Shown: piece by piece, positions 782 through 17,788 of the stretch
How the letters are laid out: every line of letters begins with the position of its first letter
Position numbering within the stretch: position 1 is the stretch's first letter
Virus record (IMG/VR): IMGVR_UViG_2870464427_000002
DNA: 17,788 nt
Source: a virus
Taxonomy: Duplodnaviria; Heunggongvirae; Uroviricota; Caudoviricetes
Strand: one strand, 5' to 3'
Notes under the pieces: model-generated
The model's database searches: none
What the model saw: only the letters and a program-made list of their open reading frames with translations
What the model was told of the DNA's origin: nothing
Made by a program: the position numbers and the translations under genes

Positions 782-1235
782 ACGGCTGATATTGCCAGCT
801 ACTGACTAAAGCGTACAAGTGGTTTGGAGAATAGCGCCAGCTTTCCTTCAGTTGCAGAAATTCAGCACAAAATTCACTGCAAAACAGGCGATCGCGCTGT
901 TCTTTATTACCGATAATAATTCCTAATGCTCCGCGCCAGTCATATTTTTTGCCATCATGTTTACGGAAAAAAGTTTCCACATCCTGAAGGCTGGCCTGGA
1001 GCGGCAGCATATCCCACTTATCCGCTGGCAATGGCATTATTTTTCCGCGTACACCGCGATCGCGCAGTGATGCGGAGTAACAAAGGTATCTCTTTTCACC
1101 ATGCTTAACGGCTAATTCACAGTGGGAATAACTACCGCGTGTGATTTTACGGGTAAGCCAGTCAGCCAGTCGGGCAATACCACGGTGCTCTGTTCGGCCC
1201 TTATAACAAGCGAGCCAGACAGTGGTTTTACTCAT
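780..1235 (-). CDS. Permuted papain-like (YiiX/YaeF, peptidase C92 / NlpC-P60 superfamily-like) protein; last gene of the tail operon
   Basis: 151-aa ORF whose ATG overlaps the upstream Tfa stop (ATGA at 1232-1235). His-before-Cys order: SYSHCEL at about residue 36-42, then GKKYDWRG...LFCSEFCAEF at about residue 95-126. This resembles the YSH ... G.PYD ... YCSE pattern of C92 amidases (recognised from memory). Confidence 0.6.
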   Translation of the reverse strand: MSKTTVWLACYKGRTEHRGIARLADWLTRKITRGSYSHCELAVKHGEKRYLCYSASLRDRGVRGKIMPLPADKWDMLPLQASLQDVETFFRKHDGKKYDWRGALGIIIGNKEQRDRLFCSEFCAEFLQLKESWRYSPNHLYALVSSWQYQP

Positions 1236-1939
1236 GGTTGCCAGCCTGTTGAATAATCGTAGTCGAGCACCGCCTGAATATCGTCCAGTGCTTCCACCGC
1301 CGCGATATGACGCTGGGCGTTTGCGAACAAGCGCATATCGTGATCCATGGTGACCGATTCAAACTGGGCAGCGATTTCGTTGGTTAACTCAATCAGACCA
1401 TTATTTTTAGTTTTCCACATTAACCCTGGCGGAATTTTTTTCTCCGCTCCCATTTTTGTGAGTGAAAGCTGTTGGATACGGCTATTTGTATCACTGTGGA
1501 AGTGATGGTTGTTGATGATGATGTAATCGGTTGTGATGGCATCGCGTTGATTTTTGATTGCAGAGTATTTCGCCTCTTTAGCATCGGTTATAGATGGTTG
1601 CCATTTTTCACCATCCCAACGTTCAAAAGAACCTGTCGGGGAAATGACTGTTACATTTTCAGGTAATTGGCCCAATTCTTGAATAATAAGCTGGCTACCA
1701 TCAACTTTGTTATAAACAGTTTGGCCTCGATGATCTTCAATAAGTCTCCATGTTTCATTCTCCCACACTGGAGTAAAACCAGGAGCCTTTTCGGGAGGTG
1801 AAATTAATGTGCAATAATTTGGCAAGCCTGTATTAGGTGCAATGTATGCATCAGACTCACCGATATATTCTTGGGAGTCTTGTGAAAAATTATATACAGT
1901 TAGTATTTGAGCTTCATCAGAAAAGGTAAAAGTATTCAT
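1232..1939 (-). CDS. Tail fibre assembly chaperone, chimeric (lambda Tfa-like N-domain plus DUF4376-like C-domain)
   Basis: 235 aa. The N-terminal part ([25 protein letters not shown] ... [34 protein letters not shown] ... ERWDGEKW) aligns by eye with lambda Tfa-type chaperones. The C-terminal half is a different module. ATGA overlap with the fibre stop. Confidence 0.85.
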
Positions 1940-3516: not shown

Positions 3517-3518
3517 TA

Positions 3519-4235
3519 TTACTCCGGATATACAGACATAATTTCGGTGCTCCAGTATCCTGTGCCGACCTTCATCGGTTGGGATTGTGTAAGGCGATCG
3601 GGTTGATAAGGTAGTAGTTGGATATATTCCTCCACACAATAACCCGTCGCTAAAAATATTCCTGATGACTGGCTGAGGCTTTCTGCAACAGGAGGCAATA
3701 CTGTAATGACTTCCCCTCCTTGCATGGCGCTGCCAATAACTGGTATTGGGCTTCGATTAATAAGCCAAATAACAATGCTTTCCAGCTTTGAACGAACATT
3801 TTTATATTCATGAATTAATGTGATAAGTGCATTGAATTCATCTTCATTTAATCCTTTTTCCTCTAGTGTAATATTTACCTTAAAAAAATAAGCCCTTCCC
3901 CCATATTCAAACCATTCTGAAATAGTTCCGGGTAAGGAAAGTATTTCCAGCACTCGCCGTACCGCCCAAATTGTTCCTTTATATTTATGCAGTTCAATGG
4001 CTTGTTTAATTAACTCGCGTTTCTCCCGCTCATCGGTGGTAAATAACCAACCTTCCAGCCCCTGAACGTGAAATTGTTCTGCAAGGGCTGGTAATGCCGA
4101 AGCATCAACCAGGTCGACCAGATAAACCATCAACGCCGTCAGATCGAGTTGGGCAAAACGCTCGGCGGCGATGTTTGCCAGAATCGAAAAACGCTCATCG
4201 CTGGCAAGCGGCGGCGGTGGCAGCAATTTATCCAT
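3519..4235 (-). CDS. Baseplate/tail protein, P2 gpI-like (Mu gp48 slot), with a C-terminal extension
   Basis: I prefer ATG 4235 ([27 protein letters not shown]..., GGAG 9 nt upstream, 8-nt overlap with the J stop) over the tracked TTG at 4250. The LLPP..L..ER start and the position after J match gpI. At 238 aa it is longer than P2 gpI. Confidence 0.8.
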
Positions 4236-5343
4236 CGCTGACTCCGGCAATCGTGACGTCTATTGCAGTGCATTCCGCCCATTCATGCGCCTGCAAAATA
4301 CGTTTTGTAGGCATATTCAGCGCAACGTCATAGACGCCATCGACCTGTAACACTTTGATTATCTGGTTTGGCACAATGTCCTGCCCCAGATGTTTCTGCC
4401 GCTGTTGCGTCCAGAGGCTAATCGCTTTACGCGCCGCAGCCAGCGTTGTCTCCTGATCGGCGGTGGTAAACAGCATTAGCTGCGCACGGATCTCATACGG
4501 CACTCGAAGAGCGCATTTCGCACTCACTTTGTCGGTCAGCGGTCGTTTTTTCTCCTTGCTGACTTCTTGTTCAATCTGCGCCAGCAACTCCGTGCCGGGT
4601 AGACCATTCAGGGTTAGCGGGTAGATCTCCACGCAGCCTTCTGGCAATCCCTCGTCCGGCCCCAGTACTGCAACGTCAATAATCGACTGGCTAACAGAAA
4701 GCGTATGAAAGCGGTAGGCACCATAGCTGCCCGCATTACTAAAGCTTTCTGGTGCCAGTTGGATACGCTGGCGCAATGCGTCATCGCTCTCTTCACCGCA
4801 GCCGCCCGTTGACGCAGTCAGGTTGGTTACGTTGATGTCATAATGACCAATCCTGTCGACCAGTGCGCTAATTTGTGCAGGCTGCCAGCCGTTACCCTGT
4901 TCACCTGCTGCGAGGCTGGTGGCAGGAACGGCGATATGCAAACTCCTGGCCGGAAGCAGAACATCTTCATCGGTGGCGAACATCACGCTATCAGAGGCAC
5001 TGGCCCGCGTCCCCTGGGGAATCAGGATATTGCCGGGATACGCACTAACGACCGAAAACTGCAACGTCGTTTTTGCAGGCTGCGCAGGCAAACGGTGAAC
5101 TCCCACCAACTCCCCTAAATAATCCAGCATTGGCGCGCGGGAATACGCGACCAGGTTTTGTTTCGCCGCTTCCTGAATGGCGATGCGTACAAGGTTTTCA
5201 CGATAGGCAAACAGGTCGATGAGCAACCGCTCAGCCTGTGCCGGATAGAGTTTTTTACCACTGGCATCTTCGTATTGCGCAATCATCTCACTGGTAATTT
5301 GCGCAGGATCGCGGTCAATAAAATTGGGTTCGGCTATCGCCAT
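4228..5343 (-). CDS. Baseplate wedge protein, P2 gpJ / Mu gp47-like
   Basis: 371 aa. N-terminus FIDRDPAQITSEMIAQYEDASGKKLYPAQAERLLIDLFAYRE is typical of the Baseplate_J family. It overlaps the W stop by 10 nt. Confidence 0.9.
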   Translation of the reverse strand: MAIAEPNFIDRDPAQITSEMIAQYEDASGKKLYPAQAERLLIDLFAYRENLVRIAIQEAAKQNLVAYSRAPMLDYLGELVGVHRLPAQPAKTTLQFSVVSAYPGNILIPQGTRASASDSVMFATDEDVLLPARSLHIAVPATSLAAGEQGNGWQPAQISALVDRIGHYDINVTNLTASTGGCGEESDDALRQRIQLAPESFSNAGSYGAYRFHTLSVSQSIIDVAVLGPDEGLPEGCVEIYPLTLNGLPGTELLAQIEQEVSKEKKRPLTDKVSAKCALRVPYEIRAQLMLFTTADQETTLAAARKAISLWTQQRQKHLGQDIVPNQIIKVLQVDGVYDVALNMPTKRILQAHEWAECTAIDVTIAGVSDG

Positions 5344-5693
5344 AACACCTCCGTTGAGTTGATAACGCCGTCAGCGGCGCGCCATTGCACACGTAACGTC
5401 AGATGTTCGCCGTCGATTACTGGTGTCACCTTCAGCAACCGACAGCGCGGTTCCCACTGGCGGATGGCTTCCACCGACTCCCGTACCACATGCGGGATAG
5501 CCCGCTCGATGGGGTAATCGATGTAGTGCCACAAGTTGCTGCCAAACAGCGGTCTGTGGGGATCACTGCCGCGCGGTGTACGCAGAATGATGTGTATTGC
5601 CTGGTGAATATCATCCAGCCCGCAGACGTATTCTTCAGGCCGCTGCAAGGCCGGTTGCCAGTGCAGCGTTGAGGGGCGTGTTTTTGTGTTCAT
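5334..5693 (-). CDS. Baseplate wedge protein, GPW/gp25 family (P2 gpW-like)
   Basis: 119 aa. GLDDIHQAIHIILRTPRGSDPHRPLFGSNLWHYIDYP aligns with the P2 W core (ILRTP.GSR....YGS). No recognisable Shine-Dalgarno sequence precedes the ATG. Confidence 0.88.
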   Translation of the reverse strand: MNTKTRPSTLHWQPALQRPEEYVCGLDDIHQAIHIILRTPRGSDPHRPLFGSNLWHYIDYPIERAIPHVVRESVEAIRQWEPRCRLLKVTPVIDGEHLTLRVQWRAADGVINSTEVLWR

Positions 5694-5756
5694 GAGGGTA
5701 TTTTCGCCCTGAACGGGCTGTGGAGATATTAAAGCGATTTAGAAAACTGATTGATT

Positions 5757-5786
5757 AAAAAGAGAAAACCCGCCATCAGGCGGGTT
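5757..5786 (-). terminator. Intrinsic terminator inside the tail cluster, between gpV and gpW
   Basis: On the minus strand: AACCCGCC-TGAT-GGCGGGTT followed by TTCTCTTTTT. It starts 5 nt after the gpV stop. Confidence 0.6.
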
Positions 5787-5791
5787 AAAAG

Positions 5792-6493
5792 TCAGTGTGA
5801 ATGGTGGTTGGAGTTGCCACCGCTGTCCTGCAATGCGCCGCTGGCCTGAACGTTGCCGATCACGTTGACATTGCCGGTTATCGTGGCTGCGTTACCGATG
5901 CCTCCACTTCCTGCCATCCCGCCAAGCCAGGTGAGTTTTTTCATTACCGTGACGTTGCCAGTAAAGGTGCTCATGGGCGCATCTACCGTCACTGCTGCTG
6001 CTTTAACCTCGACCTTAGTGGCGTCGATGCTGACATCGGTCGCTTTAACATCGACGGTATCGGAAGTCACGGTGACGTGTTGGGCTTTAATCTCAACGTT
6101 GGGCGATGTCAGGCGGGTGCTGTCGATAACCTCAATCACGATTTTCTCGATACCGCCGTTAATCGTCAGCTGGTGCGTGCTGCGGTCATATTCAAACGCT
6201 GCGCCATCAGAAAACTGGACGTAACGTTTGTCGCGCGAGGCTACAGGCGCGGTGTCAACCGTAGAATAAACGGCACCCAGCACCACGCCATCTTCACCGT
6301 TATCGTCCAGCAGAACTTCCACTTGCTCGCCCATATCCGGTAGCCAGTAGTCTTTATTGTCCTGGGAATTGCGTTGAAGTACCGCAAGCCAGTTGCTCTT
6401 CAGATTGTCACACTCTGGTAGAGTGACCCGTACCCGAACACTGGTTTCGTCAATATCGCTGATAATCCCCGTTTGACGGGTTACTCCTTTCAT
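5792..6493 (-). CDS. Baseplate central spike, P2 gpV / Mu gp45-like
   Basis: 233 aa. The N-terminus is OB-fold-like (GIISDIDETSVRVRVTLPECDNLKSNWLAVLQR). The C-terminus has beta-helix-like repeats (VTVTSDTVDVKATDVSIDATKVEVKAAAVTVDA) and a His-rich tip, NSNHHSH. A strong RBS, AGGAGGAAAT, precedes the ATG. Confidence 0.9.
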   Translation of the reverse strand: MKGVTRQTGIISDIDETSVRVRVTLPECDNLKSNWLAVLQRNSQDNKDYWLPDMGEQVEVLLDDNGEDGVVLGAVYSTVDTAPVASRDKRYVQFSDGAAFEYDRSTHQLTINGGIEKIVIEVIDSTRLTSPNVEIKAQHVTVTSDTVDVKATDVSIDATKVEVKAAAVTVDAPMSTFTGNVTVMKKLTWLGGMAGSGGIGNAATITGNVNVIGNVQASGALQDSGGNSNHHSH

Positions 6494-6502
6494 ATTTCCT
6501 CC

Positions 6503-7543
6503 TTACTGGCTGGTCGCTGGCCCGCGTGACACGTCGATTTCAGTGGTATAGCCGCTGCGCACAAAACTGTGAGTAGATTTATCAATCAGCCACTGACCGG
6601 AAATCACGCCAAAATCGGTCAGTTCAATTTTATTGCCCGCCGTCAGTTCCGGGCAGCCCATCATTGTGAGCGTTCCGGTTTGCTGATATTCGTTGTGGCT
6701 GTCGAGTGCAGCGTTAGCCTTTGCCTGTGCTGCGCCAACGTCCGTCGCCCGACTGTTCAGTTTTAGCGTGTCGGCACTAGTGCCGACTCCACGGACAGAT
6801 GGTTTTTGCTGGCTGTTGTGAGTGTAGATAACCAGTTCTTTTTTCTTACTATTTTGATGCTGTACGGTGGCGTTCTTGTAGATCCGGTTAATGGTGTCTT
6901 TGAAGGTAAAATGAGAAACCTCTTTGCGATCGATCTTTTTCACAGGCGTCAGGCAGCGCAGCGTGGGTAAATGTGAAAAAATCAGCTCTTTTGTCGTCAC
7001 TTTTACGGCATAACCATATTCACTGGCCAGACGTTTGAGAAATCCGACATCGGTTTCACCATACTGCGTTACCCGGTCGATGGTGAGCGACTCGATTTTG
7101 CCCACCAGTTTCAGACCGTGCGTTTGGGCAATACGGCTGGCGATCGCCGAAAGCGTCGTTTCTTCAAAGCCCTGGCTGTTACGGGTGCGCAGCGCCTGAT
7201 TGACGGAAGTGGCGATGCCATCAATATTTACCGTGGAAGGTGGCGCTGAAATATCAATTTTATCAATAATATACTGGCCACAATCGAGCAGCTTTTCCCC
7301 CTGATAACCTATATGCAGCGCCAGCGTATCGCCTTTGCCGGGATACCACTCTTTTATCCAGCGTCCATCTGTGTCATCCAGTGTAATTGCGATGGTATCC
7401 GACTCGTTTTTGATGCTGTCGTGGTAACTGATGCTGGTGACATAGGGTGTGATGTCATAAGTGATATCTTTATGCCCATACCAGAGGGTAAAAATGGGCG
7501 TGAGTGTGGCAAAGACGCCACCAGTTACGCTCATCTCAGCCAT
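6503..7543 (-). CDS. Baseplate hub protein, P2 gpD / Mu gp44 (late control D) family
   Basis: 346 aa. Its position follows X and precedes V. The motifs ETDVGFLKRLASEYGY and the C-terminal GNKIELTDFG...GQWLIDKSTHSF...GYTTEI are typical of the gpD family. Confidence 0.88.
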   Translation of the reverse strand: MAEMSVTGGVFATLTPIFTLWYGHKDITYDITPYVTSISYHDSIKNESDTIAITLDDTDGRWIKEWYPGKGDTLALHIGYQGEKLLDCGQYIIDKIDISAPPSTVNIDGIATSVNQALRTRNSQGFEETTLSAIASRIAQTHGLKLVGKIESLTIDRVTQYGETDVGFLKRLASEYGYAVKVTTKELIFSHLPTLRCLTPVKKIDRKEVSHFTFKDTINRIYKNATVQHQNSKKKELVIYTHNSQQKPSVRGVGTSADTLKLNSRATDVGAAQAKANAALDSHNEYQQTGTLTMMGCPELTAGNKIELTDFGVISGQWLIDKSTHSFVRSGYTTEIDVSRGPATSQ

Positions 7544-7740
7544 GGTGGGATCTCCGATAAGGTTTTATTAACGGAAATGACCGGAATAATGAGCTGAATA
7601 CCGGAAGGCAGTACCGGGTAAATGGCTACATGTGGATTGGCGGCGATTATGCGTTCATAAGCCAGCGCATCACCGTAGTAATGCCATGCCAGGTTATCCC
7701 AGCGTTCGCCATCGGTGGTGATATGTTCAAGGTATCGCAT
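7531..7740 (-). CDS. Tail protein X (P2 gpX-like, LysM-like)
   Basis: 69 aa. TTDGERWDNLAWHYYGDALAYERIIAANPHV...LPSGIQLIIPVI matches the gpX pattern. TAATG overlap with the upstream gene. Confidence 0.85.
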   Translation of the reverse strand: MRYLEHITTDGERWDNLAWHYYGDALAYERIIAANPHVAIYPVLPSGIQLIIPVISVNKTLSEIPPWLR

Positions 7741-8693
7741 TACCAGCTCCTGGTAATGGTTACGGCAGCAAGCTGGCTCACTGCGGGAGTGGTTTGTTGT
7801 ACCGTTGTACGTGCCTGCTCAACCAACGACGTGGCTTTATCGAACGTCGCTTCGGCGATGTCGCTGGTAATGTCGTCGAAAAGCGCCTGAGCATGGTCAA
7901 CCAGCGTACTGGCGTCATTGGCGCAGTCCCGGATACCTGGCATGTTACCCAGTAAAGCTTTAATCTGCGCCGACAACGCTTTTGGTAGGCCTGCCAGCGT
8001 TTGCAGATCCATTGGCTGTTTAAACAGGGTTTCGATGGCGTCGATTGTCTTTTTCAATGACGTAATTATCTTTTCACACTTTTCTTTTAACGCTTTGGCC
8101 TCTTTAATCATTGCTTTCACTTTTGCCACCGTTTTTTTAATATCTTCAATGGATTGTGTCAGTTCATCCAGCATCTCTTTGGCCTTACGCATACCTTCTT
8201 CAATGGCGTTTAATATCTGATCAAACCAGGACTCCACCTTGTCGGGAAAATCGCTCGCCTTTTCCTCGATGTTGGGCTCCTGGGTGGTAATCGCCGGAGG
8301 TAAAAGTGGATTTTTAGGATCGCCGGTGTACTCCTGGAGCGACATCGTTCCGTTTTGGGCAATCACATTGCCCCAGGGATCGGTGTGCTGGTGGGTGGCG
8401 GTTAGCTCCGTAATCACAAACCAGCCGCGATAATCGCCATTGCCAAATACCAGTGCCATCGCCTTGTGAGCAAGCATGGCTTCACGCAGTCGGTTCAGCT
8501 CTGTTGTGGGCTGGCAAAACTGGCTGTGCAGGGAAAATTCCAGCGCCAGCATATCCAGCTTATCGCCAATAAACTGCACGCCGGGTTTGCCTTCTATACG
8601 GGCATGTGTGGCGTAATCCACGCCCATTGTGCTTTTAAAGCCGTCCCAGAATGTGACAACCTTAAATTCAATCTCTCCTAAAACGGCATACAT
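7740..8693 (-). CDS. gpU-like tail protein fused to a ~190-aa coiled-coil extension (occupies the Mu N/gp43 slot)
   Basis: The first ~125 aa (MYAVLGEIEFKVV...THARIEGKPGVQFIGDKLDMLALEFSLH...GNGDYRGWFVITELTATH) resemble P2 gpU. The rest is a K/E-rich helical repeat (MRKAKEMLDELTQSIEDIKKTVAKVKAMIKEAKALKEKCEKIITSLKKTIDAIE...). TAATG overlap with the tape-measure stop. Confidence 0.75.
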   Translation of the reverse strand: MYAVLGEIEFKVVTFWDGFKSTMGVDYATHARIEGKPGVQFIGDKLDMLALEFSLHSQFCQPTTELNRLREAMLAHKAMALVFGNGDYRGWFVITELTATHQHTDPWGNVIAQNGTMSLQEYTGDPKNPLLPPAITTQEPNIEEKASDFPDKVESWFDQILNAIEEGMRKAKEMLDELTQSIEDIKKTVAKVKAMIKEAKALKEKCEKIITSLKKTIDAIETLFKQPMDLQTLAGLPKALSAQIKALLGNMPGIRDCANDASTLVDHAQALFDDITSDIAEATFDKATSLVEQARTTVQQTTPAVSQLAAVTITRSW

Positions 8694-11068
8694 TAGGCAT
8701 ACCCCCGGCGCTGCTGCTGCGCCATTACATCGTTAATCATTCTTTCCAGTTCGCGTTTACTCATCGTCAACACGTTCTGAATCTCTTTAGTGGTGTTTTG
8801 TCCGTTACCCTGCACGGTAATTTGTGGCGAAAAATTCACCTGAACTTTTCCTGAGGAACGGGAAGGTAGCGTCGCCGCTTTGGTTACGGATTTACCAGGT
8901 AAAGAGGCAGATACGGGTTTGGCGGCTGTATTTTTTGCCGCTGGCGCCGATGACGGCGTAGCCGTTTTGCCGGATGGCGCGAGTTGTTTGCCCACCGGCG
9001 GCGTTAAAATCGCACCGGCAACGCCTGGAACAACGGTCGCGGGGGAGACGGATGCGGTATTAGTCGTGCTTGTAATAGCTGTAGCCGATCCTTCTGTACT
9101 AATACCCATCGTGGTTTTTAGCCAGTCTGGGATGGCGTTTTTTACCTGATCAATAATGCCTTTCAGAGCGGGGAAGGCATTCATTATGCCGTCAACCAGA
9201 CTGCCCAGAAGATTGCTGCCGAACTCGCTAAAACTTGCAGGCATCTCGACACCAAACCAATTCATCACACTGGAAAAGGCGCTATAGAACAACTCCAGCG
9301 GTGACCAGTCGAGAATCAACCGACAAATTCCTGCAATGCCGCCGTCAAAGGCCGTGGTGATACGTTGCCAGATGGTCGAAAAGAACCTGGAGATAGGCTC
9401 CCAGTTGCGATAAATCAGATAAGCAGCGCCCGCAATCGCAGTGATGACCAGACCAATGGGATTCATCAGTAGCACCCGGCCTAGTGAGAGAACGGTCCGA
9501 CCAACCAGTTTCAATGTTCCAATCAGGCCACGACCAAGCAGTTGCGTTAGCCATTTTGCGCCGCCACCCAATGACTTAACCGCTGATAGCATCTTACTTG
9601 CCCCGCCTGTGAGCGCCAGACTTGCCTTGACTTTCAGGAAGATATCGACCAGACGAATAAACGGCGAGGTGATGAGGTTCGCGCCCAGCTTTAAAACATT
9701 CAGCGCACCGTTAAACAGCCAAATCGCCCCGACGATTTTCGCGATGTTTTGCACCAGTGTCGGGTGCTCACGTAGCCAGGCGCTGAACTGACGAATAACC
9801 GGCGTAAGGCTTTGTGCCAGCTCGCCAATCAGCGGCATTAATTGCAAGCCAATGCTGAGCCATAAATCATTTAACGCCAGCTGTAACGCTTTAGTCTGTT
9901 CAATGGGCGAGGCCATTTGCGCAGAAAAGTCGGCATCAATCAGATTCTTGCTGGTGGCTTGCATGGCAGAGGCTTTTAACTGGCGATATTCCTCCATATT
10001 CGCCAGCATAGGGGCCAGGAATTCCACTGTTTGCGCATCGCCGAACATTTCCCCCAGATTAAACTGCGTCACCATCGATTGCAGCGCATTGCTGCGGGCA
10101 GATAAATCTTCGATCTGCATGGTGCGTTTGAAGGTGTCGAGGATCGCCGGATTCATCTTCTCAAGCTGCATTTGCACGATATGAGTCATGGCTTCGCTAA
10201 CACCCATACCGTTTTGCTGATGCTCAAGCAGAGAGCCTTGCAGATCAACGCCCTGGCTGACGAACCAGTAATCGGTTTTTTTCGAAAAGGTGGTTTGCAG
10301 AAAGTGGTCGAAATTCTCCGCCGCCGCACTGGCGCTGGCCCCGTTTTTCATGGCGATCTGCATGGTGGCGGTCAGTTCAGCCATACCTTCCAGACCCTGA
10401 GCGCCGGTTTTACCTGCAAATTTCTCTATCCACTGCGTTTGTTCAGCAATGGCAGGCCCACCGCTTTTGCTAATGCCGTACATCATGTTTTGCGCGGCGT
10501 GGAAATTTTCCGGGGCAATATTCAGTCGATCATGGGTTGCGAGCGCGGCATTCGCCCATGTTTCAGCACTTTCGCGCGTGGCGGTGGCAGCTTTGGCGAT
10601 CTCCGGCATATAACGGTTGAGATCCTGTATCGACGACAAATTGCCTTCGATCAGCGTTTGGGCTGCGTTCTGTAAGGTGGTCTGCTGCTGGTTAAAATCC
10701 ATGCTCCAGTCGCGCAGATTAAGGCTGAGCGTCTCGCGGGTTGTAGCATTCATCCCACCTTTGGTCGCCATATTGACCATGTTGTCCTGAAACTCATACG
10801 GCAACTTCCAGTCGGGGGCTTCAACATTGAATACTTTGCTAAATTGCCCGGCAAATGTTTGGGTTTTCTCCATCAGATTAGCGCGGCTGCGGCTATTTTC
10901 CTCCAGGCGGAGAGCGGAATCGGCAAGCTGCTGCGTTAGTTTGATAACTGTCGCCTGCTGAGTAGAGAGAGTTAACAATGTTCTGGCGTTGAGTGAGCCG
11001 TAACGGGCTATTGCCTGCGTCAACGTCTCATTACGCGCCTGAAGCTGGGTAATAATATCGTTGGCCAA
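8693..11068 (-). CDS. Tail tape measure protein
   Basis: 791 aa. Helical N-terminal half, a cluster of hydrophobic segments at about residue 400-640, and an Ala/Pro/Ser/Thr-rich linker near the C-terminus. It sits after the chaperone gene. The only available start is TTG 11068, because a stop lies 4 codons upstream, and the SD (AGAGAA) is weak. Confidence 0.88.
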   Translation of the reverse strand: MANDIITQLQARNETLTQAIARYGSLNARTLLTLSTQQATVIKLTQQLADSALRLEENSRSRANLMEKTQTFAGQFSKVFNVEAPDWKLPYEFQDNMVNMATKGGMNATTRETLSLNLRDWSMDFNQQQTTLQNAAQTLIEGNLSSIQDLNRYMPEIAKAATATRESAETWANAALATHDRLNIAPENFHAAQNMMYGISKSGGPAIAEQTQWIEKFAGKTGAQGLEGMAELTATMQIAMKNGASASAAAENFDHFLQTTFSKKTDYWFVSQGVDLQGSLLEHQQNGMGVSEAMTHIVQMQLEKMNPAILDTFKRTMQIEDLSARSNALQSMVTQFNLGEMFGDAQTVEFLAPMLANMEEYRQLKASAMQATSKNLIDADFSAQMASPIEQTKALQLALNDLWLSIGLQLMPLIGELAQSLTPVIRQFSAWLREHPTLVQNIAKIVGAIWLFNGALNVLKLGANLITSPFIRLVDIFLKVKASLALTGGASKMLSAVKSLGGGAKWLTQLLGRGLIGTLKLVGRTVLSLGRVLLMNPIGLVITAIAGAAYLIYRNWEPISRFFSTIWQRITTAFDGGIAGICRLILDWSPLELFYSAFSSVMNWFGVEMPASFSEFGSNLLGSLVDGIMNAFPALKGIIDQVKNAIPDWLKTTMGISTEGSATAITSTTNTASVSPATVVPGVAGAILTPPVGKQLAPSGKTATPSSAPAAKNTAAKPVSASLPGKSVTKAATLPSRSSGKVQVNFSPQITVQGNGQNTTKEIQNVLTMSKRELERMINDVMAQQQRRGYA

Positions 11069-11158
11069 AATTGTTTCTCTTTAAATATTGATAATGGCCC
11101 GCTGGTTATTTTTCTAAAAAAAGGGGCAGGGAAGAAATAAACCTGACGGGCTTGGGAA

Positions 11159-11183
11159 ACTCGCAGACATCAGGTCTGCGAGT
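11159..11183 (-). other. Perfect 10-bp stem-loop in the chaperone-to-tape-measure spacer
   Basis: ACTCGCAGAC / 5-nt loop / GTCTGCGAGT. The UGA that closes the E'-like frame lies in the loop. No proper U-tract follows. Confidence 0.5.
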
Positions 11184-11391
11184 CATATTCGATTTTTATT
11201 TGGGCGCTGGCTTCATCCAGCCAGTTGCTAAAGTCATCGACGGTAAGGGCGTCTATCTCACTGGGTGGAAAGCGAAACCATCTCGCCAGTAACGCCATCG
11301 CTTGCCATAACAGTGGCGGATTCTGTAGCCACGCTAAGCATGGATTGAAATCGTTTCTGCAATGCCTGGTAATCCAGCAAATCCATTTCAG
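11170..11391 (-). CDS. E'-like extension frame of the tail chaperone, reachable only by a +1 (= -2) frameshift
   Basis: A stop-free frame of 73 codons plus its stop, with no useful start codon. It overlaps the last 134 nt of the gpE-like gene and continues 88 nt beyond it, encoding ...PPSEIDALTVDDFSNWLDEASAQIKIEYDSQT. The span from 11575 to 11170 is 406 nt (3n+1). Confidence 0.5.
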   Translation of the reverse strand: MKWICWITRHCRNDFNPCLAWLQNPPLLWQAMALLARWFRFPPSEIDALTVDDFSNWLDEASAQIKIEYDSQT

Positions 11392-11575
11392 CTAAATCTT
11401 CTGGCACCAGTCCGGTCATTGCCGCCATTAGCGGTTCATCCCACTCTTCAGGTTTTTCGCTGATCCGGCGCGCGTTGCGCATATCTTTTACTTTCAGGCG
11501 ACGTAATTGCAGAGTGTTAATTACGTCTCCCGCCGCTGAAGTAAACGGGAACTGTAAGATATAATGTTCTTTCAT
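11258..11575 (-). CDS. Tail assembly chaperone, P2 gpE-like
   Basis: 105 aa sitting between the tube and tape-measure genes. FPFTSAAGDVINTLQLRRLKVKDMRNARRIS...LVPEDLAEMDLLDYQALQKRF fits the gpE/gp41 chaperone family. RBS is AAGGA. Confidence 0.8.
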   Translation of the reverse strand: MKEHYILQFPFTSAAGDVINTLQLRRLKVKDMRNARRISEKPEEWDEPLMAAMTGLVPEDLAEMDLLDYQALQKRFQSMLSVATESATVMASDGVTGEMVSLSTQ

Positions 11576-11601
11576 TTTGTGTCCTTATTTATTTTGCAAA
11601 G

Positions 11602-11621
11602 TTCGGGGCCGTAGCCCCGAA
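11602..11621 (-). terminator. Stem-loop between the tube and chaperone genes (weak terminator or attenuator)
   Basis: TTCGGGGC / 4-nt loop / GCCCCGAA. On the minus strand it is followed only by CTTTGC, so termination is probably partial at most. Confidence 0.4.
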
Positions 11622-11625
11622 TAAC

Positions 11626-12150
11626 TTAGCCACCGATGTTATTGCGATAGGTACTTAATTGATCCACACCATTAACCCGGAAAATATTGGCCATATAATC
11701 AAGTTCAAGCAGCGTTTCACCATCAACTACTTGTTTAATATAAGTGCAACCAAAGGCGCTGCTGAATTCCGGGTTTTCATTCTGTTTAAATGTGCCCAGT
11801 GGATTCTTTTTAAACATCACGGTTAAATGTGTCACTAGCGCTAATTGATTCGCTTTCCCCTGGGAGTTATAGCAATCAATACTGGAGCGGCACTGTAATG
11901 CAACCGCCTGCCACGGGTTTGCCGTTTTACGCATTACGTCCTGATAGAAGGAGTTCCATTTAATTTCGCCCTCCAGTTTATCGAAACCCGCCGGGAGTTC
12001 GATTTTACCCACCATGCCCAGTGCTTTATGCTCCTGCATAATTAAACTGACATCCGGCAATTTAATTTCGGTTGCACGACCTAAAAGGTTATTACCATCG
12101 AGATAAATATTGGCGTTGGTAATACGGTTAATTTGAATTTTTCCAGCCAT
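11626..12150 (-). CDS. Tail tube protein (P2 FII-like)
   Basis: 174 aa directly after the sheath gene (TAATG overlap). ITNANIYLDGNNLLGRATEIKLPDV...GMVGKIELPAGFDKLEGEIKWNSF matches the contractile-tail tube family. Confidence 0.9.
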   Translation of the reverse strand: MAGKIQINRITNANIYLDGNNLLGRATEIKLPDVSLIMQEHKALGMVGKIELPAGFDKLEGEIKWNSFYQDVMRKTANPWQAVALQCRSSIDCYNSQGKANQLALVTHLTVMFKKNPLGTFKQNENPEFSSAFGCTYIKQVVDGETLLELDYMANIFRVNGVDQLSTYRNNIGG

Positions 12151-13573
12151 TAGCTATTGCTCTCCAGAGAGACTAAATATTCAGAAGTAATTTCAGTTTC
12201 AAACGTCAGACGTTCCAGCGGCGGCGGCGGGGTGAATTTATAGCTCAGCAATAAATGCCCAGCGCTGAGTTCAGTCGGTGAATTTCGCGCCGGATCGTAC
12301 CAGCATTCAAAGCCAAGCAGTGCGCCGTCGGCAATCAGCTTACGGCCCCAGGTATTTACCGATTCGGTCAGGGCATCAATCAGCGCCTGATTAATCGGCA
12401 TATCAATATACTGCTGACTGAAATAACGGATTGACTCATTAATTACATCGCCTGTCCGGCGGACGTTTTCAAAGTTACGCATATGGGTCACGGTAGGCCA
12501 CGCTGCAGTGCGGTTGCCCCACAAGCGCAGACCAGAGCCGTAACTATTGAAAATAGTGGTAATGCCGTTTTCGTTTAGCTGATTCACTTCGCTTTGTGGA
12601 TCATCAATCATTGCGGAAAGCGAACGTTCAATACCGGTAATACCCTGAATTTCTTGGTTTGAGTTGCTCCACCAGAAACCTTTTTCGAGGTCTACTTTGG
12701 CACGTAGCCCGGCAGCGCGCGAAGAGAGCGGTTCGAGAACTTCCTGGTTAGTGATGCCATCGTAAACTTTGACGTGTGGGTAACATAAACGCGCACGATC
12801 AGAGCTGGTGTTGAAGTTGATAGCCCCTTGCGAACCGCGTCCTGCCAATACCTGCTGGAATGTCGTCCCAATCGGGGCATCAATGTAGGTAATCGCACCA
12901 AGTTTTTCCGCTTGTGCAATCAGCTCTGTAGTTACTGATTTTTGCGTACAGAACACGGGAGCAAGCAGGATTTTGGCGTAGAAACCATACAGGTTATAGG
13001 TGTCCTGTAGCAGTTTCATCCCCGTGCGGTCGCCTGCGGTATTTACGGTACCGATAATATCGGCTGCGGTGACCTTTGTAGGGTCGCACCAGGAATAATA
13101 GGCACAAACTTTCGCACCAGGAGGAATGTCGGCTCCTTTACGGGTAATTATGCCTGTTTGTTCATCTACGCTAAATGCTGCGGTGTTAAAGGTTGATGAA
13201 TTTGATGAAGAGGGCTTTAGTACCACGTTACGCACATTGCGGTGAGCGAGCTTCGCCTGGTTGTTAGCATCAAAAGTGATACTCTCATTGCTGATGTTGG
13301 AGCCATGTTTTGCCGGATCCAGCACGTTAATCACCACCACCGTACCGGCACCGTGGTCATAAATTGCCTTCAGTGCCTGTGGGATCGTAAAGTTAGCCTG
13401 AGTCGAGCCAAACTGCGCAGCATCGCTTTCAGAAAGGCATAATGTTGGTTTATTTACCGGACCGCAGGGGCTGTACCGATTAAAGCGATGACGGCGGATT
13501 TTACCGCTTTAACCGGACGCGGGCCGGTTTCAATTTCAATAGTTTCTACACCGTGCAGATAATTAGCTGCCAT
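12150..13573 (-). pseudogene. Tail sheath gene (P2 FI / Mu L family) broken by a 1-nt frameshift
   Basis: ATG 13573 opens MAANYLHGVETIEIETGPRPVKAVKSAVIALIGTAPAVR*, with the stop at 13454-13456. The sheath sequence continues in the -1 frame as PCGPVNKPTLCLSESDAAQFG...VVVINVLDP down to 12150. One extra C in the C4 run (plus-strand GGGG, 13467-13470) restores a 474-aa ORF. Confidence 0.8.
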
Positions 13574-13760
13574 GTACAATTTCCTCTACGTTATTTTGTT
13601 CTTCCTGAGTGATGACAGGAGTCAGATGATTGCGGGCAATCATGGTCATGACCCACTCGTTGTCTTCTGGCAGATCAATTTCACTGTTCGGCCACAATAA
13701 GATTTCTTGTCCATCGGCAAGGGTGACGCCGCTTGCTGGGCCGTTGTAGATGTATTTCAT
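13563..13760 (-). CDS. Small tail-associated protein (Mu-like gp38 / DUF2635-type slot)
   Basis: 65 aa. ATGA overlap with the upstream gene, and its end overlaps the sheath start by 11 nt. Size and position match the small ORF that precedes the sheath gene in Mu-like tails. Family recall is from memory only. Confidence 0.55.
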   Translation of the reverse strand: MKYIYNGPASGVTLADGQEILLWPNSEIDLPEDNEWVMTMIARNHLTPVITQEEQNNVEEIVHGS

Positions 13761-14212
13761 TCAGTTTCCTCGTAGTTAACTTCCGTAAGCAGGGGAAGAT
13801 CCGTGCTTTCCTGTTCAGCGATAAATAGCGAGCTGGTCGCCATTTCCAGGATGTAGCGGCAGAAACCGCCGCTCTCACCCGTATTAATTTCTTTTTCAAG
13901 CCAAAGAAGACGATCGCAATCAGGAAGCTGAAGGCCACCCAATGCGCTGCGTATGTGATCAAGTGCGTTTAATGCATCACAATTTTTGCCAACAATAACG
14001 GTGGCGGTTAAGCGGAGTATTTGCTGTTGCACGATGGCATTACTGCTTTCGGGCGTAGCAAAGACAGAACCGCTATAATTAATAATCACTGCAACTCGTT
14101 GTGTCTGTGGAATATATTTCTGGGCATCCTTAGATGAAATAAATATATCCATTTCGGAGTTGTGTTCACGTAATCTGGTCACAACAGAATTCATTACAGA
14201 TAAAATTTCCAT
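13757..14212 (-). CDS. Tail completion/terminator-like protein (Mu-like gp37 / DUF1834-type slot); first gene of the tail operon
   Basis: 151 aa. It is the first ORF after a strong terminator and a promoter-like region. The N-terminus ILSVMNSVVTRLRE resembles gp37-family starts. The assignment rests on position plus a weak pattern match. Confidence 0.5.
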   Translation of the reverse strand: MEILSVMNSVVTRLREHNSEMDIFISSKDAQKYIPQTQRVAVIINYSGSVFATPESSNAIVQQQILRLTATVIVGKNCDALNALDHIRSALGGLQLPDCDRLLWLEKEINTGESGGFCRYILEMATSSLFIAEQESTDLPLLTEVNYEETE

Positions 14213-14275
14213 ATAGGCTGTACCTTAATTACCGCTCACTTCGTTATCGTTGAAATGTATTCTGAAGCAGCGAAG

Positions 14276-14284
14276 GTGAAGAAT
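14276..14284 (-). promoter_or_regulatory. ATTCTTCAC motif upstream of the tail operon (candidate activator-dependent promoter element)
   Basis: The identical 9-mer occurs upstream of the lysis operon at 15627-15635. Here TCTTCA-N17-TACATT gives a poor -35 and a fair -10. ATTAAAAG lies immediately 5' of the motif. Confidence 0.3.
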
Positions 14285-14319
14285 CTTTTAATGTGATTTA
14301 GAGAAAAAATTGAATGGTT

Positions 14320-14353
14320 AAAAAAATCCCCACCCTTACATAAGGGTGGGGAT
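14320..14353 (-). terminator. Strong intrinsic terminator separating the lysis cassette from the tail operon
   Basis: On the minus strand: ATCCCCACCC-TTATGTAA-GGGTGGGGAT followed by TTTTTT. It starts 3 nt after the stop of the 104-aa gene. A T-run is also present on the plus strand, so it could act in both directions. Confidence 0.8.
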
Positions 14354-14356
14354 TTT

Positions 14357-14671
14357 TCAATAACTGCCACGTTGTAACAGCTCGATTTTGCTATATAAGG
14401 CATCCAGCTTCGCTTCTAATACTGCTTGCCCACGAAGATAATCTTCTCTGCGGACATAATGCAGCGGAAGCTCGGCACGAAATTCGAGAAATTCTCTTTC
14501 CAGTTTCGACCAACTTGTTTCTGATTCCCGGCGCGCGTTTTCCAGAGATTCAAAACGCTCATTAAGTCGTTTTTCAATTTGTGCTAACAGCAGTTTTCCG
14601 GCAGCAAACATTAATCCAACGAAGGAAAGCATAAGGGAGATCACTTCCCAAAAATCGATACTGAGTTTCAT
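14357..14671 (-). CDS. N-terminal TM plus coiled-coil lysis accessory protein (i-spanin-like or Mu gp25/DUF2730-like)
   Basis: 104 aa. One TM segment (WEVISLMLSFVGLMFAAGKLLL) followed by heptad-like helices (IEKRLNERFESLENARRESE...LEAKLDALYSKIELL). RBS is AGAGGGG. It is the third gene of the lysis cassette. Confidence 0.55.
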   Translation of the reverse strand: MKLSIDFWEVISLMLSFVGLMFAAGKLLLAQIEKRLNERFESLENARRESETSWSKLEREFLEFRAELPLHYVRREDYLRGQAVLEAKLDALYSKIELLQRGSY

Positions 14672-14683
14672 CGGCCCCTCTGA

Positions 14684-15289
14684 TTAATGAAGACAGCTTG
14701 CCTGTCCCCAGAGTAAATAGCGGGCGGCATGTTGATAGAGGATCATCTTTGGATAGCGACGATTTTCTCGCCAGTTCGTGGCGCTGCGCCCGGCGTTGAC
14801 TTGCTCAACATGACCAAACCAGCTAGTGGCATCTAACCCTTTGGATGCAGCCAGTTTTTTATCCCGGTTAACCCACCCCTGACCGCCGTTATAGGCGCTT
14901 AGGGTAAACGCCATACGCTGACAATCATTTTTCGCAGAGATGTTTTTCCACAAATGCTGGTCATATTGCACCAGCGCGCGAATCGCCCAGGTTGGGTTAT
15001 ACGGTTTGTTTTCACGCAATTGTGGATACAACTGGCTTATCCATGTCGCTGTAGCAGGCATAAATTGCGCCATACCTTGTGCGCCAACGGGGGAACGTAC
15101 CATTGGCTGCCAGGCGGACTCCTGGTGTAATTGCCCGGCAAAGTCGGCCACTGGGGCATTCAGCCCCCAGACTTCTCGAGCTGTACGAATTAGTTCGTTT
15201 CGCCATGCCAGAGAGGCTCTCGGCGGTTCAGAGGCGTTGAGTGGGAAAAGAACGAAAATAATCATAGACGCGATATATTTCAGCCACAT
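14684..15289 (-). CDS. Lytic transglycosylase (SLT domain) endolysin with an N-terminal signal or signal-anchor
   Basis: I prefer ATG 15289 (MWLKYIASMIIFVLFPLNASEPP...), 2 nt after the upstream stop. The tracked start at 15388 overlaps the holin-like gene. SLT motif: LHQESAWQP...GAQGMAQFMP.TA...SAYNGG. Confidence 0.85.
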   Translation of the reverse strand: MWLKYIASMIIFVLFPLNASEPPRASLAWRNELIRTAREVWGLNAPVADFAGQLHQESAWQPMVRSPVGAQGMAQFMPATATWISQLYPQLRENKPYNPTWAIRALVQYDQHLWKNISAKNDCQRMAFTLSAYNGGQGWVNRDKKLAASKGLDATSWFGHVEQVNAGRSATNWRENRRYPKMILYQHAARYLLWGQASCLH

Positions 15290-15291
15290 CA

Positions 15292-15579
15292 CTATAGCCC
15301 TAACGCGACGGAAAGGCAGACGGCAGCAACGATGATAGCCCGGCGAATCATTGCCGCCGCGCAGCAACGCGGTTCCTTCCAGGGGCAAAAAGAGTCAGGC
15401 CGTGCCCAGGGGAACAAACTGCGATCGAGCCAGTATCCCAGCACCGCGGAAAGCGAAACCAGGCTTAGTTTATAAATGACGACCGGGATTTGTGCTGAAG
15501 AGGTCCAGCCGATCACGACAAACAGCGCGACGGAAGCGACCAGCCAACCGGAAAGCCGGGGAAGAGTGACTTTTTTCAT
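15292..15579 (-). CDS. Small three-TM membrane protein, putative holin
   Basis: 95 aa with three hydrophobic segments (WLVASVALFVVIGW; IPVVIYKLSLVSLSAVLGYWL; AIIVAAVCLSVALGL). It is the first gene of the cassette, immediately upstream of the endolysin. RBS is AGGAG. Confidence 0.5.
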   Translation of the reverse strand: MKKVTLPRLSGWLVASVALFVVIGWTSSAQIPVVIYKLSLVSLSAVLGYWLDRSLFPWARPDSFCPWKEPRCCAAAMIRRAIIVAAVCLSVALGL

Positions 15580-15626
15580 ACGGTATCTCCTGATAAGTGA
15601 GCGTTTAGTGTCGCCAGAACCCGCCA

Positions 15627-15635
15627 GTGAAGAAT
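15627..15635 (-). promoter_or_regulatory. ATTCTTCAC motif upstream of the lysis operon (candidate activator-dependent promoter element)
   Basis: Same 9-mer as at 14276-14284, lying 48 nt upstream of the holin-like ATG. ATTAAAG lies 8 nt further 5'. Confidence 0.3.
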
Positions 15636-15853
15636 GAAAAAAGCTTTAATAAATAAGTTTAAAAAATAGATTCTCTATAAATGAACATGCCCGCTAATAA
15701 ATCCACTCAGCAATTAAAGAGCAAAAGGTGACCTCGCGAATAAGCGCGTCATTATGCAGGGAAAAGATGATGGTGAATCGTAGGAATAGTCAGTAGTTAT
15801 TTGATTTTTAAAGTTTGTTTAAGAAAGTCAGCGACTGTGAGGGAAACGATCTT

Positions 15854-15881
15854 TTTACACTACAAGTAAAAATAATACTGT
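15854..15881 (+). promoter_or_regulatory. Candidate rightward sigma70 promoter overlapping the left SOS half-site
   Basis: TTTACA (15854-15859), a 16-nt spacer, then TACTGT (15876-15881). The -10 candidate is the left arm of the reconstructed LexA box. In the present state it points into the IS. Confidence 0.3.
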
Positions 15882-15889
15882 ATGTGTAT
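15876..15889. promoter_or_regulatory. Left half of an IS-split LexA (SOS) box
   Basis: TACTGT+ATGTGTAT directly abuts the IS left end. Confidence 0.7.
15882..15889. repeat. Target-site duplication, left copy (ATGTGTAT)
   Basis: Identical 8-mer at 17206-17213, immediately outside both inverted repeats. Confidence 0.85.
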
Positions 15890-15919
15890 GGGTCTTCCCT
15901 TGTTGTGGTGGCTGAAGGC
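15890..15919. repeat. IS left inverted repeat
   Basis: GGGTCTTCCCTTGTTGTGGTGGCTGAAGGC, compared with the reverse complement of the right end, GGGTCTTCCCCGATCATGGTGGGAAGGC. The first 10 nt are identical and the TGGTGG and GAAGGC blocks are shared. Confidence 0.8.
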
Positions 15920-15956
15920 ATGATAATGGTGTATTTAATCGCCAGAGGTCACCGCC

Positions 15957-17177
15957 ATGGACGAAAAGTCCCTCTACGCTCATATTCTCAACCTGTCCGA
16001 TCCGTGGCAGGTAAAGTCCCTTTCTCTCGATGAAAATGCCGGTTCTGTTACTGTCACTATTGAGATCGCTGAAAACACCCGGCTAGCCTGTCCGACCTGC
16101 GGTAAATCCTGTTCTGTTCACGATCACCGTCATCGTAAATGGCGCCATCTTGATACCTGCCAGTTCACCACTATTGTTGAAGCCGATGTTCCACGAATTA
16201 TGTGTCCGGAGCATGGCTGCCTGACGTTGCCTGTTCCGTGGGCTGGCCCCGGAAGCCGGTATACGTTGCTATTCGAATCGTTCGTTCTCTCATGGCTGAA
16301 AATCAGCACCGTTGATGCTGTCAGGAAGCAACTTAAGCTCAGTTGGAATGCGGTTGACGGCATTATGACCCGGGCAGTTAAGCGAGGTCTTGCCCGGATA
16401 AAAAAGCCATTATCCGCCCGTCATATGAATGTGGATGAGGTCGCCTTTAAAAAAGGACATCGTTACATAACGGTGATCTCCGATCGCGATGGTCGGGCGC
16501 TGGCCTTAACGGATGATCGCGGCACAGAGAGTCTTGCCGGCTATCTTCGCACGCTCACTGATGGGCAGTTGCTGGCTATCAAAACGCTCTCAATGGACAT
16601 GAACGCGGGCTATATAAGAGCAGCGCGTATCCACTTACCCAGTGCGGTTGAGAAAATCGCCTTTGACCGCTTCCATGTGGCGAAGCAACTGGGCGAGGTA
16701 GTTGATAAAACCCGTCAGAATGAACATCCGCACCTCCCTGTTGAAAGCCGACACCAGGCAAAAGGAACCCGCTTCCTGTGGCAGTACAGCGATAAGTGGA
16801 TGACCGAATCCCGGCAGGAAAAGCTGATGTGGCTGCGTGCACAGATGAAGCTGACGAGCCAGTGCTGGGCGCTGAAAGAGCTGGCAAAGGATATCTGGAA
16901 CAGGCCATGGAGCGAGGAAAGACGGAGTGACTGGCAGAGATGGTTGGCGCTGGCGGCTAACAGTGACGTTCCCATGATGAAAAATGCCGCGAAAACGATA
17001 GGAAAAAGGCTGTACGGGATCCTGAATGCGATGCGACACAGTGTCTCAAACGGAAATGCGGAGGCACTTAACAGCAAGATCAGGCTGCTGAGGATAAAAG
17101 CCAGGGGATACCGAAACCGGGAGCGCTTTAAACTGGGGGTGATGTTCCACTACGGAAAGCTGAATATGGCGTTCTGA
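15957..17177 (+). CDS. ISL3-family transposase
   Basis: 406 aa. N-terminal zinc-finger (CPTCGKSCSVHDHRHRKWRHLD), a DDE_Tnp_ISL3-type core (MNVDEVAFKKGHRYITVISD) and the C-terminal GNAEALNSKIRLLRIKARGYRNRERF. The stop lies just inside the right inverted repeat. Confidence 0.9.
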   Translation: MDEKSLYAHILNLSDPWQVKSLSLDENAGSVTVTIEIAENTRLACPTCGKSCSVHDHRHRKWRHLDTCQFTTIVEADVPRIMCPEHGCLTLPVPWAGPGSRYTLLFESFVLSWLKISTVDAVRKQLKLSWNAVDGIMTRAVKRGLARIKKPLSARHMNVDEVAFKKGHRYITVISDRDGRALALTDDRGTESLAGYLRTLTDGQLLAIKTLSMDMNAGYIRAARIHLPSAVEKIAFDRFHVAKQLGEVVDKTRQNEHPHLPVESRHQAKGTRFLWQYSDKWMTESRQEKLMWLRAQMKLTSQCWALKELAKDIWNRPWSEERRSDWQRWLALAANSDVPMMKNAAKTIGKRLYGILNAMRHSVSNGNAEALNSKIRLLRIKARGYRNRERFKLGVMFHYGKLNMAF

Positions 17178-17205
17178 GCCTTCCCACCATGATCGGGGAA
17201 GACCC
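17178..17205. repeat. IS right inverted repeat
   Basis: GCCTTCCCACCATGATCGGGGAAGACCC, the reverse-complement partner of 15890-15919. Confidence 0.8.
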
Positions 17206-17213
17206 ATGTGTAT
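17206..17213. repeat. Target-site duplication, right copy (ATGTGTAT)
   Basis: Identical to 15882-15889. Confidence 0.85.
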
Positions 17214-17219
17214 ACAGTA
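17206..17219. promoter_or_regulatory. Right half of an IS-split LexA (SOS) box
   Basis: ATGTGTAT+ACAGTA directly abuts the IS right end. Confidence 0.7.
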
Positions 17220-17240
17220 TCGTGTAAAATGATACACCTG

Positions 17241-17271
17241 TTGACAAGAAACATAACGCAAACAATATATC
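17241..17271 (+). promoter_or_regulatory. Candidate sigma70 promoter for the Mor-like gene
   Basis: A perfect -35 TTGACA (17241-17246) followed 17-19 nt later by AATATATC. There is no perfect -10. It would give a leader of about 165 nt. Confidence 0.35.
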
Positions 17272-17440
17272 TATTTCATGAATTTATGGCGTTCATTAAT
17301 ATTAAAAATTTATATTTTTGTTAATTGTTTATTTGTTTGTTGAATGTATTGAGTAGCAGTAATGACAACTGCTTAGCGTATATCCGTGGTTTTACACGCA
17401 TCGGGTCTTATTCAGGATGCAAGATATATGGAGATGAAAA

Positions 17441-17788
17441 ATGATACGAAAATCAAAAGAGATGGCCCGGACACCGGAGATCATTAACGACCTGGCTTTT
17501 CATGCATCGCAAGTTCTGATTGAAAGCATCAATCTCGACAGTTCATCGGCAGAAAATGTGGGCTTTGCCATTGCCGACCGAATGATGCGTAACTGGGGCG
17601 GACAAAGCATTTATTTCCCTAAGGGGATCTCCGGACGAGCATCGGAGCGTGACTACCAAATCTATAGCGAGTGCGATGGGCGCAACTACGCCGAATTAGC
17701 GAAGAAATATAATCTGACGCTGCAATGGATTTATAAGATTGTGAAACGCGTACATGCGGAAAAGCAACAGCGCCGCAGTAATTCGTAA
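17441..17788 (+). CDS. Mor/C-family transcriptional activator (Mu middle/late regulator family)
   Basis: 115 aa ending in TAA at the window edge. NWGGQSIYFPKG...SERDYQIYSECDGRNYAELAKKYNLTLQWIYKIVKR matches the Mor family core and its C-terminal HTH. RBS is GGAG. It is divergent from the lysis/tail cluster. Confidence 0.85.
   Translation: MIRKSKEMARTPEIINDLAFHASQVLIESINLDSSSAENVGFAIADRMMRNWGGQSIYFPKGISGRASERDYQIYSECDGRNYAELAKKYNLTLQWIYKIVKRVHAEKQQRRSNS

Follow-up and report, generated by a model that had tools for sequence, protein, structure and literature searches.

Gene content of the cluster adjoining lysC

The window, by which we mean the whole stretch of 17,788 nucleotides analysed here, corresponds to an E. 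coli chromosomal region adjoining lysC. It opens, in the direction of transcription of the main operon, with a gene for a Mor-family transcription activator (17441–17788, plus strand) that is divergent from the lysis and tail genes. These begin with a lysis cassette made of a holin, a lytic transglycosylase and a membrane protein (14357–15579, minus strand), all intact, followed by a Gp37-family gene and a gene of 65 amino acids (13563–14212, minus strand), both intact and placed directly upstream of the tail-sheath gene (12150–13573, minus strand). Next come the intact tail tube gene (11626–12150, minus strand), whose start overlaps the sheath stop, a tail assembly chaperone gene and the tape measure gene (8693–11068, minus strand; intact, 791 aa). 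The order continues with gpU, X, D, V, W, J, I, the fibre genes and two fibre-associated genes; a nucleotidyltransferase gene and a slipin gene lie beyond. According to the initial annotation, the tail genes other than the sheath look intact, and all other genes of the cluster proved identical to annotated intact genes.

Between mor and the holin gene sits an ISKox3-like insertion sequence of the ISL3 family (15890–17205, plus strand; 1,316 bp, with a 406-aa transposase). It is flanked by an 8-bp target duplication, ATGTGTAT, at 15882–15889 and 17206–17213, and its inverted repeats begin with GGGTCTTCCC. The insertion (window 15882–17213) is upstream of both neighbouring genes, at 310 bp from the holin ATG and 235 bp from the mor ATG. 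Many further copies of the same IS are found on plasmids of ~46 kb.

Two smaller features of the tail region are worth recording. On the minus strand, at about 11069–11300, a second frame overlaps the 3' end of the tail assembly chaperone gene and extends into the 190-nt spacer that precedes the tape measure gene, over ~30 codons. This frame probably represents the customary extension of the chaperone by frameshifting, left unannotated in the reference records. The fibre gene at 1936–3639 (minus strand; L032 3169–4416) is split by PGAP into two partial pseudogenes in the E. coli genome EC0585. The EC0585 fibre DNA is the same as the single 526-aa coding sequence WP_000135569.1 of strain 2016C-3878, an inconsistency of annotation and no lesion.

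The cluster occupies a fixed chromosomal site in 195 of 5,426 complete E. coli genomes (about 3.6%); it spans window positions 1–17788 and L001 positions 9837–25522. Close relatives of it occur in E. albertii, E. fergusonii and Salmonella. In the identical regions of 2016C-3878 and EC0585, the annotation between lysC and the slipin gene is devoid of genes for head or capsid, packaging, transposase, replication and integration.

The closest known counterpart is the P2-type tail module of phage BcepMu. Once repaired as described below, the sheath shares 71% identity with BcepMu gp39 across 99% of its own length, and ~76% with Pectobacterium proteins. A Gp37-family gene upstream of the sheath and a Mor-family regulator are likewise shared, as is the succession of sheath, tube, chaperone, tape measure, gpU, X, D, V, W, J, I and fibre. 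Unlike BcepMu, the E. coli cluster has no annotated head, transposase or replication genes and keeps a fixed chromosomal position. In these respects it resembles R-type tailocins, such as the R-pyocins of Pseudomonas aeruginosa and carotovoricin of Pectobacterium: these too are headless contractile-tail clusters at a fixed locus, with a lysis cassette and a regulator of their own, and the sheath relatives of ~76% identity occur in Pectobacterium genomes. The regulator, however, is of the Mor type and not PrtN/PrtR. By gene content, the element is thus a BcepMu-like cluster of tail and lysis genes that lacks a head, putatively of the R-tailocin type. A full-text search for literature on a lysC-linked E. 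coli tailocin or a BcepMu-like headless tail cluster returned no paper describing one.

A one-base frameshift near the start of the sheath gene

As written, the whole tail-sheath gene measures 1,424 nt (12150–13573, minus strand) and is frameshifted. From its ATG at 13573, on the minus strand, 39 codons are read as MAANYLHGVETIEIETGPRPVKAVKSAVIALIGTAPAVR before a TAA at 13456–13454, so that the truncated N-terminal frame covers 13454–13573. A CCCC run is found at 13470–13467 on the minus strand (GGGG on the plus strand). Starting just 5' of this run, the other frame stays open down to 12150 and reads CGPVNKPTLCLSESDAAQFGS...; the 396-aa C-terminal ORF within it scores above the gathering score for both Phage_sheath_1 (PF04984, 108 bits) and Phage_sheath_1C (PF17482, 66 bits).

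Adding a single C to the run gives a gene of 1,425 nt and a 474-aa protein that equals WP_000729835.1, the sheath of 2016C-3878 and EC0585, at every residue. An uninterrupted frame of the length found in orthologues (about 470–476 aa) is absent from the sequence as written, where the frame stops at codon 40, and is restored only with the added C. The motif LIGTAP-x-G-P/A-V spans the junction and is kept in 73 orthologues from other species; the continuation frame is therefore the true sheath frame. The frameshift is present in the sequence, and a chance ORF artefact is ruled out. This reproduces both the coordinates and the repair given in the initial annotation, which had placed the break after 39 codons at the C4 run (13467–13470) and obtained 474 aa by adding one C. 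In all clean relatives the run is one base longer, C5, in the context GCC CCC TGC (Ala-Pro-Cys, codons 35–37).

Were the C4 run real, the 39-aa peptide would be made together with little or no sheath, since the first start that the downstream frame offers is at GVVV (13340). The resulting particles would be unable to contract or to assemble properly, and the lysis genes and the other tail genes would be left intact.

The nearest genome carries the insertion sequence and an intact sheath

Compared with 2016C-3878, the window shows only two changes in 15,890 nt: the missing C and one SNP in the tape measure gene, at window position 9544 (L001 16758), where the window reads CAA and 2016C-3878 reads TAA. 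This nonsense codon is found in 2 of 150 genomes, 2016C-3878 and AR Bank #0349; the codon is intact in the window and in the 148 others. PGAP marks the TAA copies of the tape measure gene in these two strains as pseudogenes with an internal stop.

EC0585 (NZ_CP195049.1; urine, Zhuhai) is closer still. It equals the window at 17,787 of 17,788 aligned positions, and the sole difference is GGGGG in place of the window's GGGG. EC0585 thus has C5, carries the IS insertion as in the window, and has an intact sheath, annotated by PGAP as WP_000729835.1. Among 5,426 complete E. coli genomes, an IS is found at this site only in EC0585 (100%) and OW967966 (98.6%).

This comparison bears directly on the proposal, made in the initial annotation, that the frameshift and the IS together indicate an element being silenced in this strain. 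EC0585 shares the IS yet has an intact sheath, which led us to reject a link between IS and frameshift; because it combines the IS with C5, the IS came first and the frameshift lies outside any shared silencing history. Moreover, C4 is unseen in clean data, and all other cases of it trace to noisy assemblies of the long-read type (see below). The silencing claim is thus not upheld. The same annotation had stated that finding five C residues on resequencing would mean an assembly error and an intact gene. The present result comes close to this outcome, the five C residues and the intact sheath being those of EC0585, which is otherwise 100% identical to the window.

The C5 run across genomes, metagenomes and proteins

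In RefSeq complete E. coli genomes (5,426 searched), a 60-mer carrying C4 in the window background had 0 exact matches out of 174, and one carrying C4 in the ACATCCCC background had 0 out of 193. The C5 61-mer was matched exactly by 49 genomes. The best genomes for the ACATCCCC C4 query aligned with one gap and zero mismatches, as C5 would give; the single one of them whose sequence was read, ECONIH1, has ACA TCC CCC TGC, i.e. C5. Using a pattern that accepted C4 to C6, we found C5 in 6 of 6 JGI metagenome contigs and in 6 of 6 IMG/VR contigs. The comparison of homopolymer length across related isolates, suggested as a check in the initial annotation, hence gives C5 in every clean relative.

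Protein records give a fuller picture of both forms. In a large protein collection, at least 999 contigs carry the intact 474-aa sheath, and 495 carry a close variant of it. The window-type truncated product of 391 aa is carried by contig L005 as the sole one, and a look-up of the 396-aa ORF product found none on record. The 39-aa peptide that only C4 can produce is present on about 60 contigs, in four local backgrounds. Its sequence variants comprise the window form on 12–20 contigs, a form ending in ...GTSPAVR on 28–33 and one ending in ...GTAPVVR on 10–11. One peptide of the C6 type is also on record (P0136).

At the DNA level, the four C4 backgrounds are ACAGCCCC, ACGGCCCC, ACATCCCC and ACGGCCCCTGTGG. 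Given these four backgrounds, the C4 events are recurrent and do not descend from one inherited lineage. We accordingly rejected C4 as a lineage marker: besides its spread over four backgrounds, the intact form of each background that could be checked (a, c and d) is C5.

As a control, simulated −1 products at eight other C5/G5 runs and at two A7 runs were looked up in the same way, giving counts of 0, 0, 0, 0, 2, 0, 1 and 0 for the C5/G5 runs, and of 12 and 2 for the A7 runs. We discarded these counts as evidence of a hotspot at the sheath run, as N-terminal fragments lying under a longer downstream ORF often go uncalled and longer fragments are split by haplotype. A C5 deletion in the SLT gene of contig L013 is one example of an N-terminal fragment left uncalled.

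C4-bearing contigs carry the signature of long-read errors

Nanopore consensus errors in Enterobacteriaceae are known to be deletions at homopolymers and at Dcm CCWGG sites (Wick, Judd and Holt 2019, PMC6591954). With the exception of L005 and L018, all C4 contigs of at least 5 kb contain between 4 and 182 further indels each. These are mostly 1-nt deletions that recur at shared homopolymers (A7, T7, A6, C5, G5) and at Dcm CCWGG sites; examples are the CCCAGGGG site in the tube gene and several CCTGG sites. C4 is also found in the GenBank assemblies L002, L012 (CP121673.1), L013 and L014, in which pgi, lysC and yjbH are split by frameshifts as well; these four are uncorrected long-read assemblies. 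Among the C4 contigs of at least 5 kb, none is both long and clean in the manner of an Illumina assembly. The comparison contigs thereby display the pattern of long-read error, an indel that recurs in unrelated backgrounds and only in assemblies with homopolymer and CCWGG errors.

The positions at which contigs end tell the same story. In Logan, i.e. in assemblies of public sequencing runs, 28 of 46 ends of C4 contigs (taken from L005–L031 and L115–L122) lie at most 3 nt from a homopolymer of at least 5 nt or from a Dcm site, and 8.4% would be expected at random positions. For two C5 metagenome contigs of the Illumina type, 0 of 4 ends fall on such sites. Contig ends on error-prone sites point to noisy long reads, as a de Bruijn graph breaks there only if the reads disagree.

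Some C4 contigs appear clean at first sight. L018 has two gaps in 6.2 kb, and L007, L011, L021, L029 and L030 have one gap each. We considered the short ones (L007, L011, L021, L029, L030) as real alleles and rejected this: the noisy contig L015 also shows a single gap in the same 2.4-kb stretch, and the short contigs end on homopolymer or Dcm sites and cluster in accession blocks across backgrounds. Indeed, different C4 backgrounds repeatedly come from one accession block, as for L007/L021, L008/L025 and L017/L019/L024; such repeats across backgrounds indicate the platform rather than descent.

Contig L005 (SRR26800332, 9,627 nt) deserves particular attention, being the only other contig 100% identical to the window. 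One of its ends lies one nucleotide from a Dcm site, and the other inside a T5 run. A contig from a run 94 accessions away, L121 (SRR26800238), has the window-type background with 0 mismatches but carries T7 and A7 deletions, and its ends fall on a Dcm site and on a G5 run. L005 is thus most probably the product of a good-quality nanopore-type run, and its read set may be the one behind the window. The nanopore assignment, both of SRR26800332 and of the source of the window, is drawn from error signatures, contig-end signatures and accession proximity.

With respect to the published nanopore errors, the window shares the single-base deletion in a G/C homopolymer, which recurs in unrelated backgrounds accompanied by homopolymer and CCWGG deletions, and contigs that break at homopolymer and Dcm sites. 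It differs in holding only one deletion in 17.8 kb, far fewer than classic error-ridden assemblies, and in that its C4 site is a non-Dcm motif. More generally, a recurrent C4 call together with contig ends at homopolymers or Dcm sites can be used to flag long-read artefacts when read data are not at hand.

The C run as a possible slippage element or mutational hotspot

The initial annotation also listed a slippage-prone switch among its options. Such an element could act in two ways: as a phase-variable switch of the tailocin, alternating between C5, C4 and C6, or through −1 slippage of the ribosome, restoring the sheath from a C4 gene. The occurrence of C4 in four backgrounds and the single C6 peptide (P0136) are what one would expect of the former. 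As for the latter, a P-site tRNA-Pro slipping from CCU to CCC would, by the sequence, re-pair perfectly and yield the wild-type protein; in principle it could restore the frame at a low level.

Poly-G/C contingency loci, as in Neisseria, Haemophilus and Campylobacter, are phase-variable tracts of about 8 nt or more. The sheath tract has in common with them that the product is lost once a G/C homopolymer close to the start of the gene shifts the frame. However, it is only 5 nt long, well below the known lengths of such loci, it is not conserved in orthologues, and clean genomes show no variation in its length (0 C4 in ~193 RefSeq complete genomes and 0 in 12 metagenome or viral contigs). Length variants are confined to noisy assemblies. 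Of the 73 LIGTAP orthologues, 50 have C2, 8 have C3, 14 have C4 in frame and a single one has C5, most of them using GCG CCG or GCA CCG; the C run is an accident of the codons used in Escherichia (GCC/TCC CCC). On all three counts, tract length, polymorphism and retention in orthologues, the run does not behave as a phase-variable contingency locus.

We likewise rejected a programmed −1 ribosomal frameshift site. The slippery heptamer X XXY YYZ is absent from GCC CCU GCG, and there is no downstream structure: the following 96 nt fold no better than shuffled sequences (z = +0.45). Taken together, a functional role of the C tract in slippage of either kind is the least probable of the readings that we weighed, and the switch proposed in the initial annotation falls with it, for a tract of 5 nt, unconserved and invariable in clean genomes.

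A related reading takes the C5 run at sheath codons 35–37 as a genuine mutational hotspot at which, in E. coli lineages with this lysC-linked cluster, particle assembly is turned off time and again, each time independently. The C4 calls in the four backgrounds would then include real ones, and the strain of the window would be a recent off-variant that arose after the IS insertion. We deem this very improbable as well, if by a hair less so than a slippage element.

Under-calling of the homopolymer as the preferred explanation

We propose that the missing C is probably an under-call of the homopolymer in an assembly of long reads of the nanopore type. The source would be an EC0585-like E. coli strain whose long-read assembly retains one residual miscall; the DNA of the strain itself would have C5, and its sheath gene would be intact and encode the 474-aa WP_000729835.1. 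The window's own source assembly would accordingly be based on such long reads, which makes C4 an error. A homopolymer sequencing error was one of the options named in the initial annotation, and it is the one that we judge most likely.

Several observations lead to this preference. The sole difference between the window and EC0585 falls where dozens of noisy assemblies err likewise and in the same direction. Clean data contain no C4 at all, and the twin dataset, L005, bears a long-read signature. In addition, the source of the window, like the noisy GenBank assemblies with C4, is absent from the RefSeq complete genomes, none of which matches the C4 60-mers of the window and ACATCCCC backgrounds. 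A priori, long reads would under-call this base orders of magnitude more often than a real indel private to one strain would hit it.

Some evidence goes against an under-call. The window spans 83 homopolymers of at least 5 nt and 46 Dcm sites, and all but one of them agree with EC0585, among them A7 and T7 runs, which noisy assemblies get wrong more often. An assembly of this quality could have been polished with short reads, and polishing normally fixes a unique C5 site such as this one. Furthermore, L005 is an independent k-mer assembly of an SRA run and shows C4 over 9.6 kb with no other error; therefore, the majority of the SRR26800332 reads say C4.

These same facts support a genuine, very recent and strain-private frameshift, in which replication slippage would have turned C5 into C4 in a close relative of EC0585. 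The sheath would then end at codon 39, and assembly of the contractile particle would be abolished or nearly so, with lysis and the other tail genes intact. The lack of any other difference from EC0585 in 17.8 kb speaks for an accurate assembly, and L005 shows C4 independently and with no further error over its 9.6 kb. Homopolymers are real hotspots of indels, and relatives of the cluster do carry real lesions, e.g. the CAA-to-TAA change in the tape measure gene of 2016C-3878 and AR Bank #0349, or, possibly, an A7-to-A6 change in the same gene on the clean 24-kb contig L114, from 3 samples. Against a genuine frameshift, no clean C4 was found in any background among ~193 RefSeq genomes, 12 metagenome or viral contigs and >1,500 contigs with the intact protein. 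The only twin dataset, L005, has nanopore-type contig ends, and its accession neighbour L121 has clear homopolymer errors. Dozens of noisy assemblies demonstrably misread this site as C4, and a real indel private to one strain would, a priori, occur there far less often than an under-call. We thus regard a genuine frameshift as unlikely, if far from negligible.

Either way, the finding is an ordinary one: most likely a homopolymer miscall left in the assembly, or else a trivial pseudogenisation private to one strain. If, as we prefer, the C4 run is an artefact, neither should the sheath be entered as a pseudogene nor the element as a decaying or silenced one in this strain. Were the run real, it would be an ordinary strain-private loss of function in a structural gene of a tailocin-type element, relevant only to predicting whether the isolate produces killing particles.

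The A7-to-A6 change on contig L114 (SRR15372969) splits the tape measure gene at positions 6001–8375; apart from it, the contig departs from the reference at two mismatches alone. In contrast to the C4 calls in the sheath gene, it may represent a genuine frameshift lineage.
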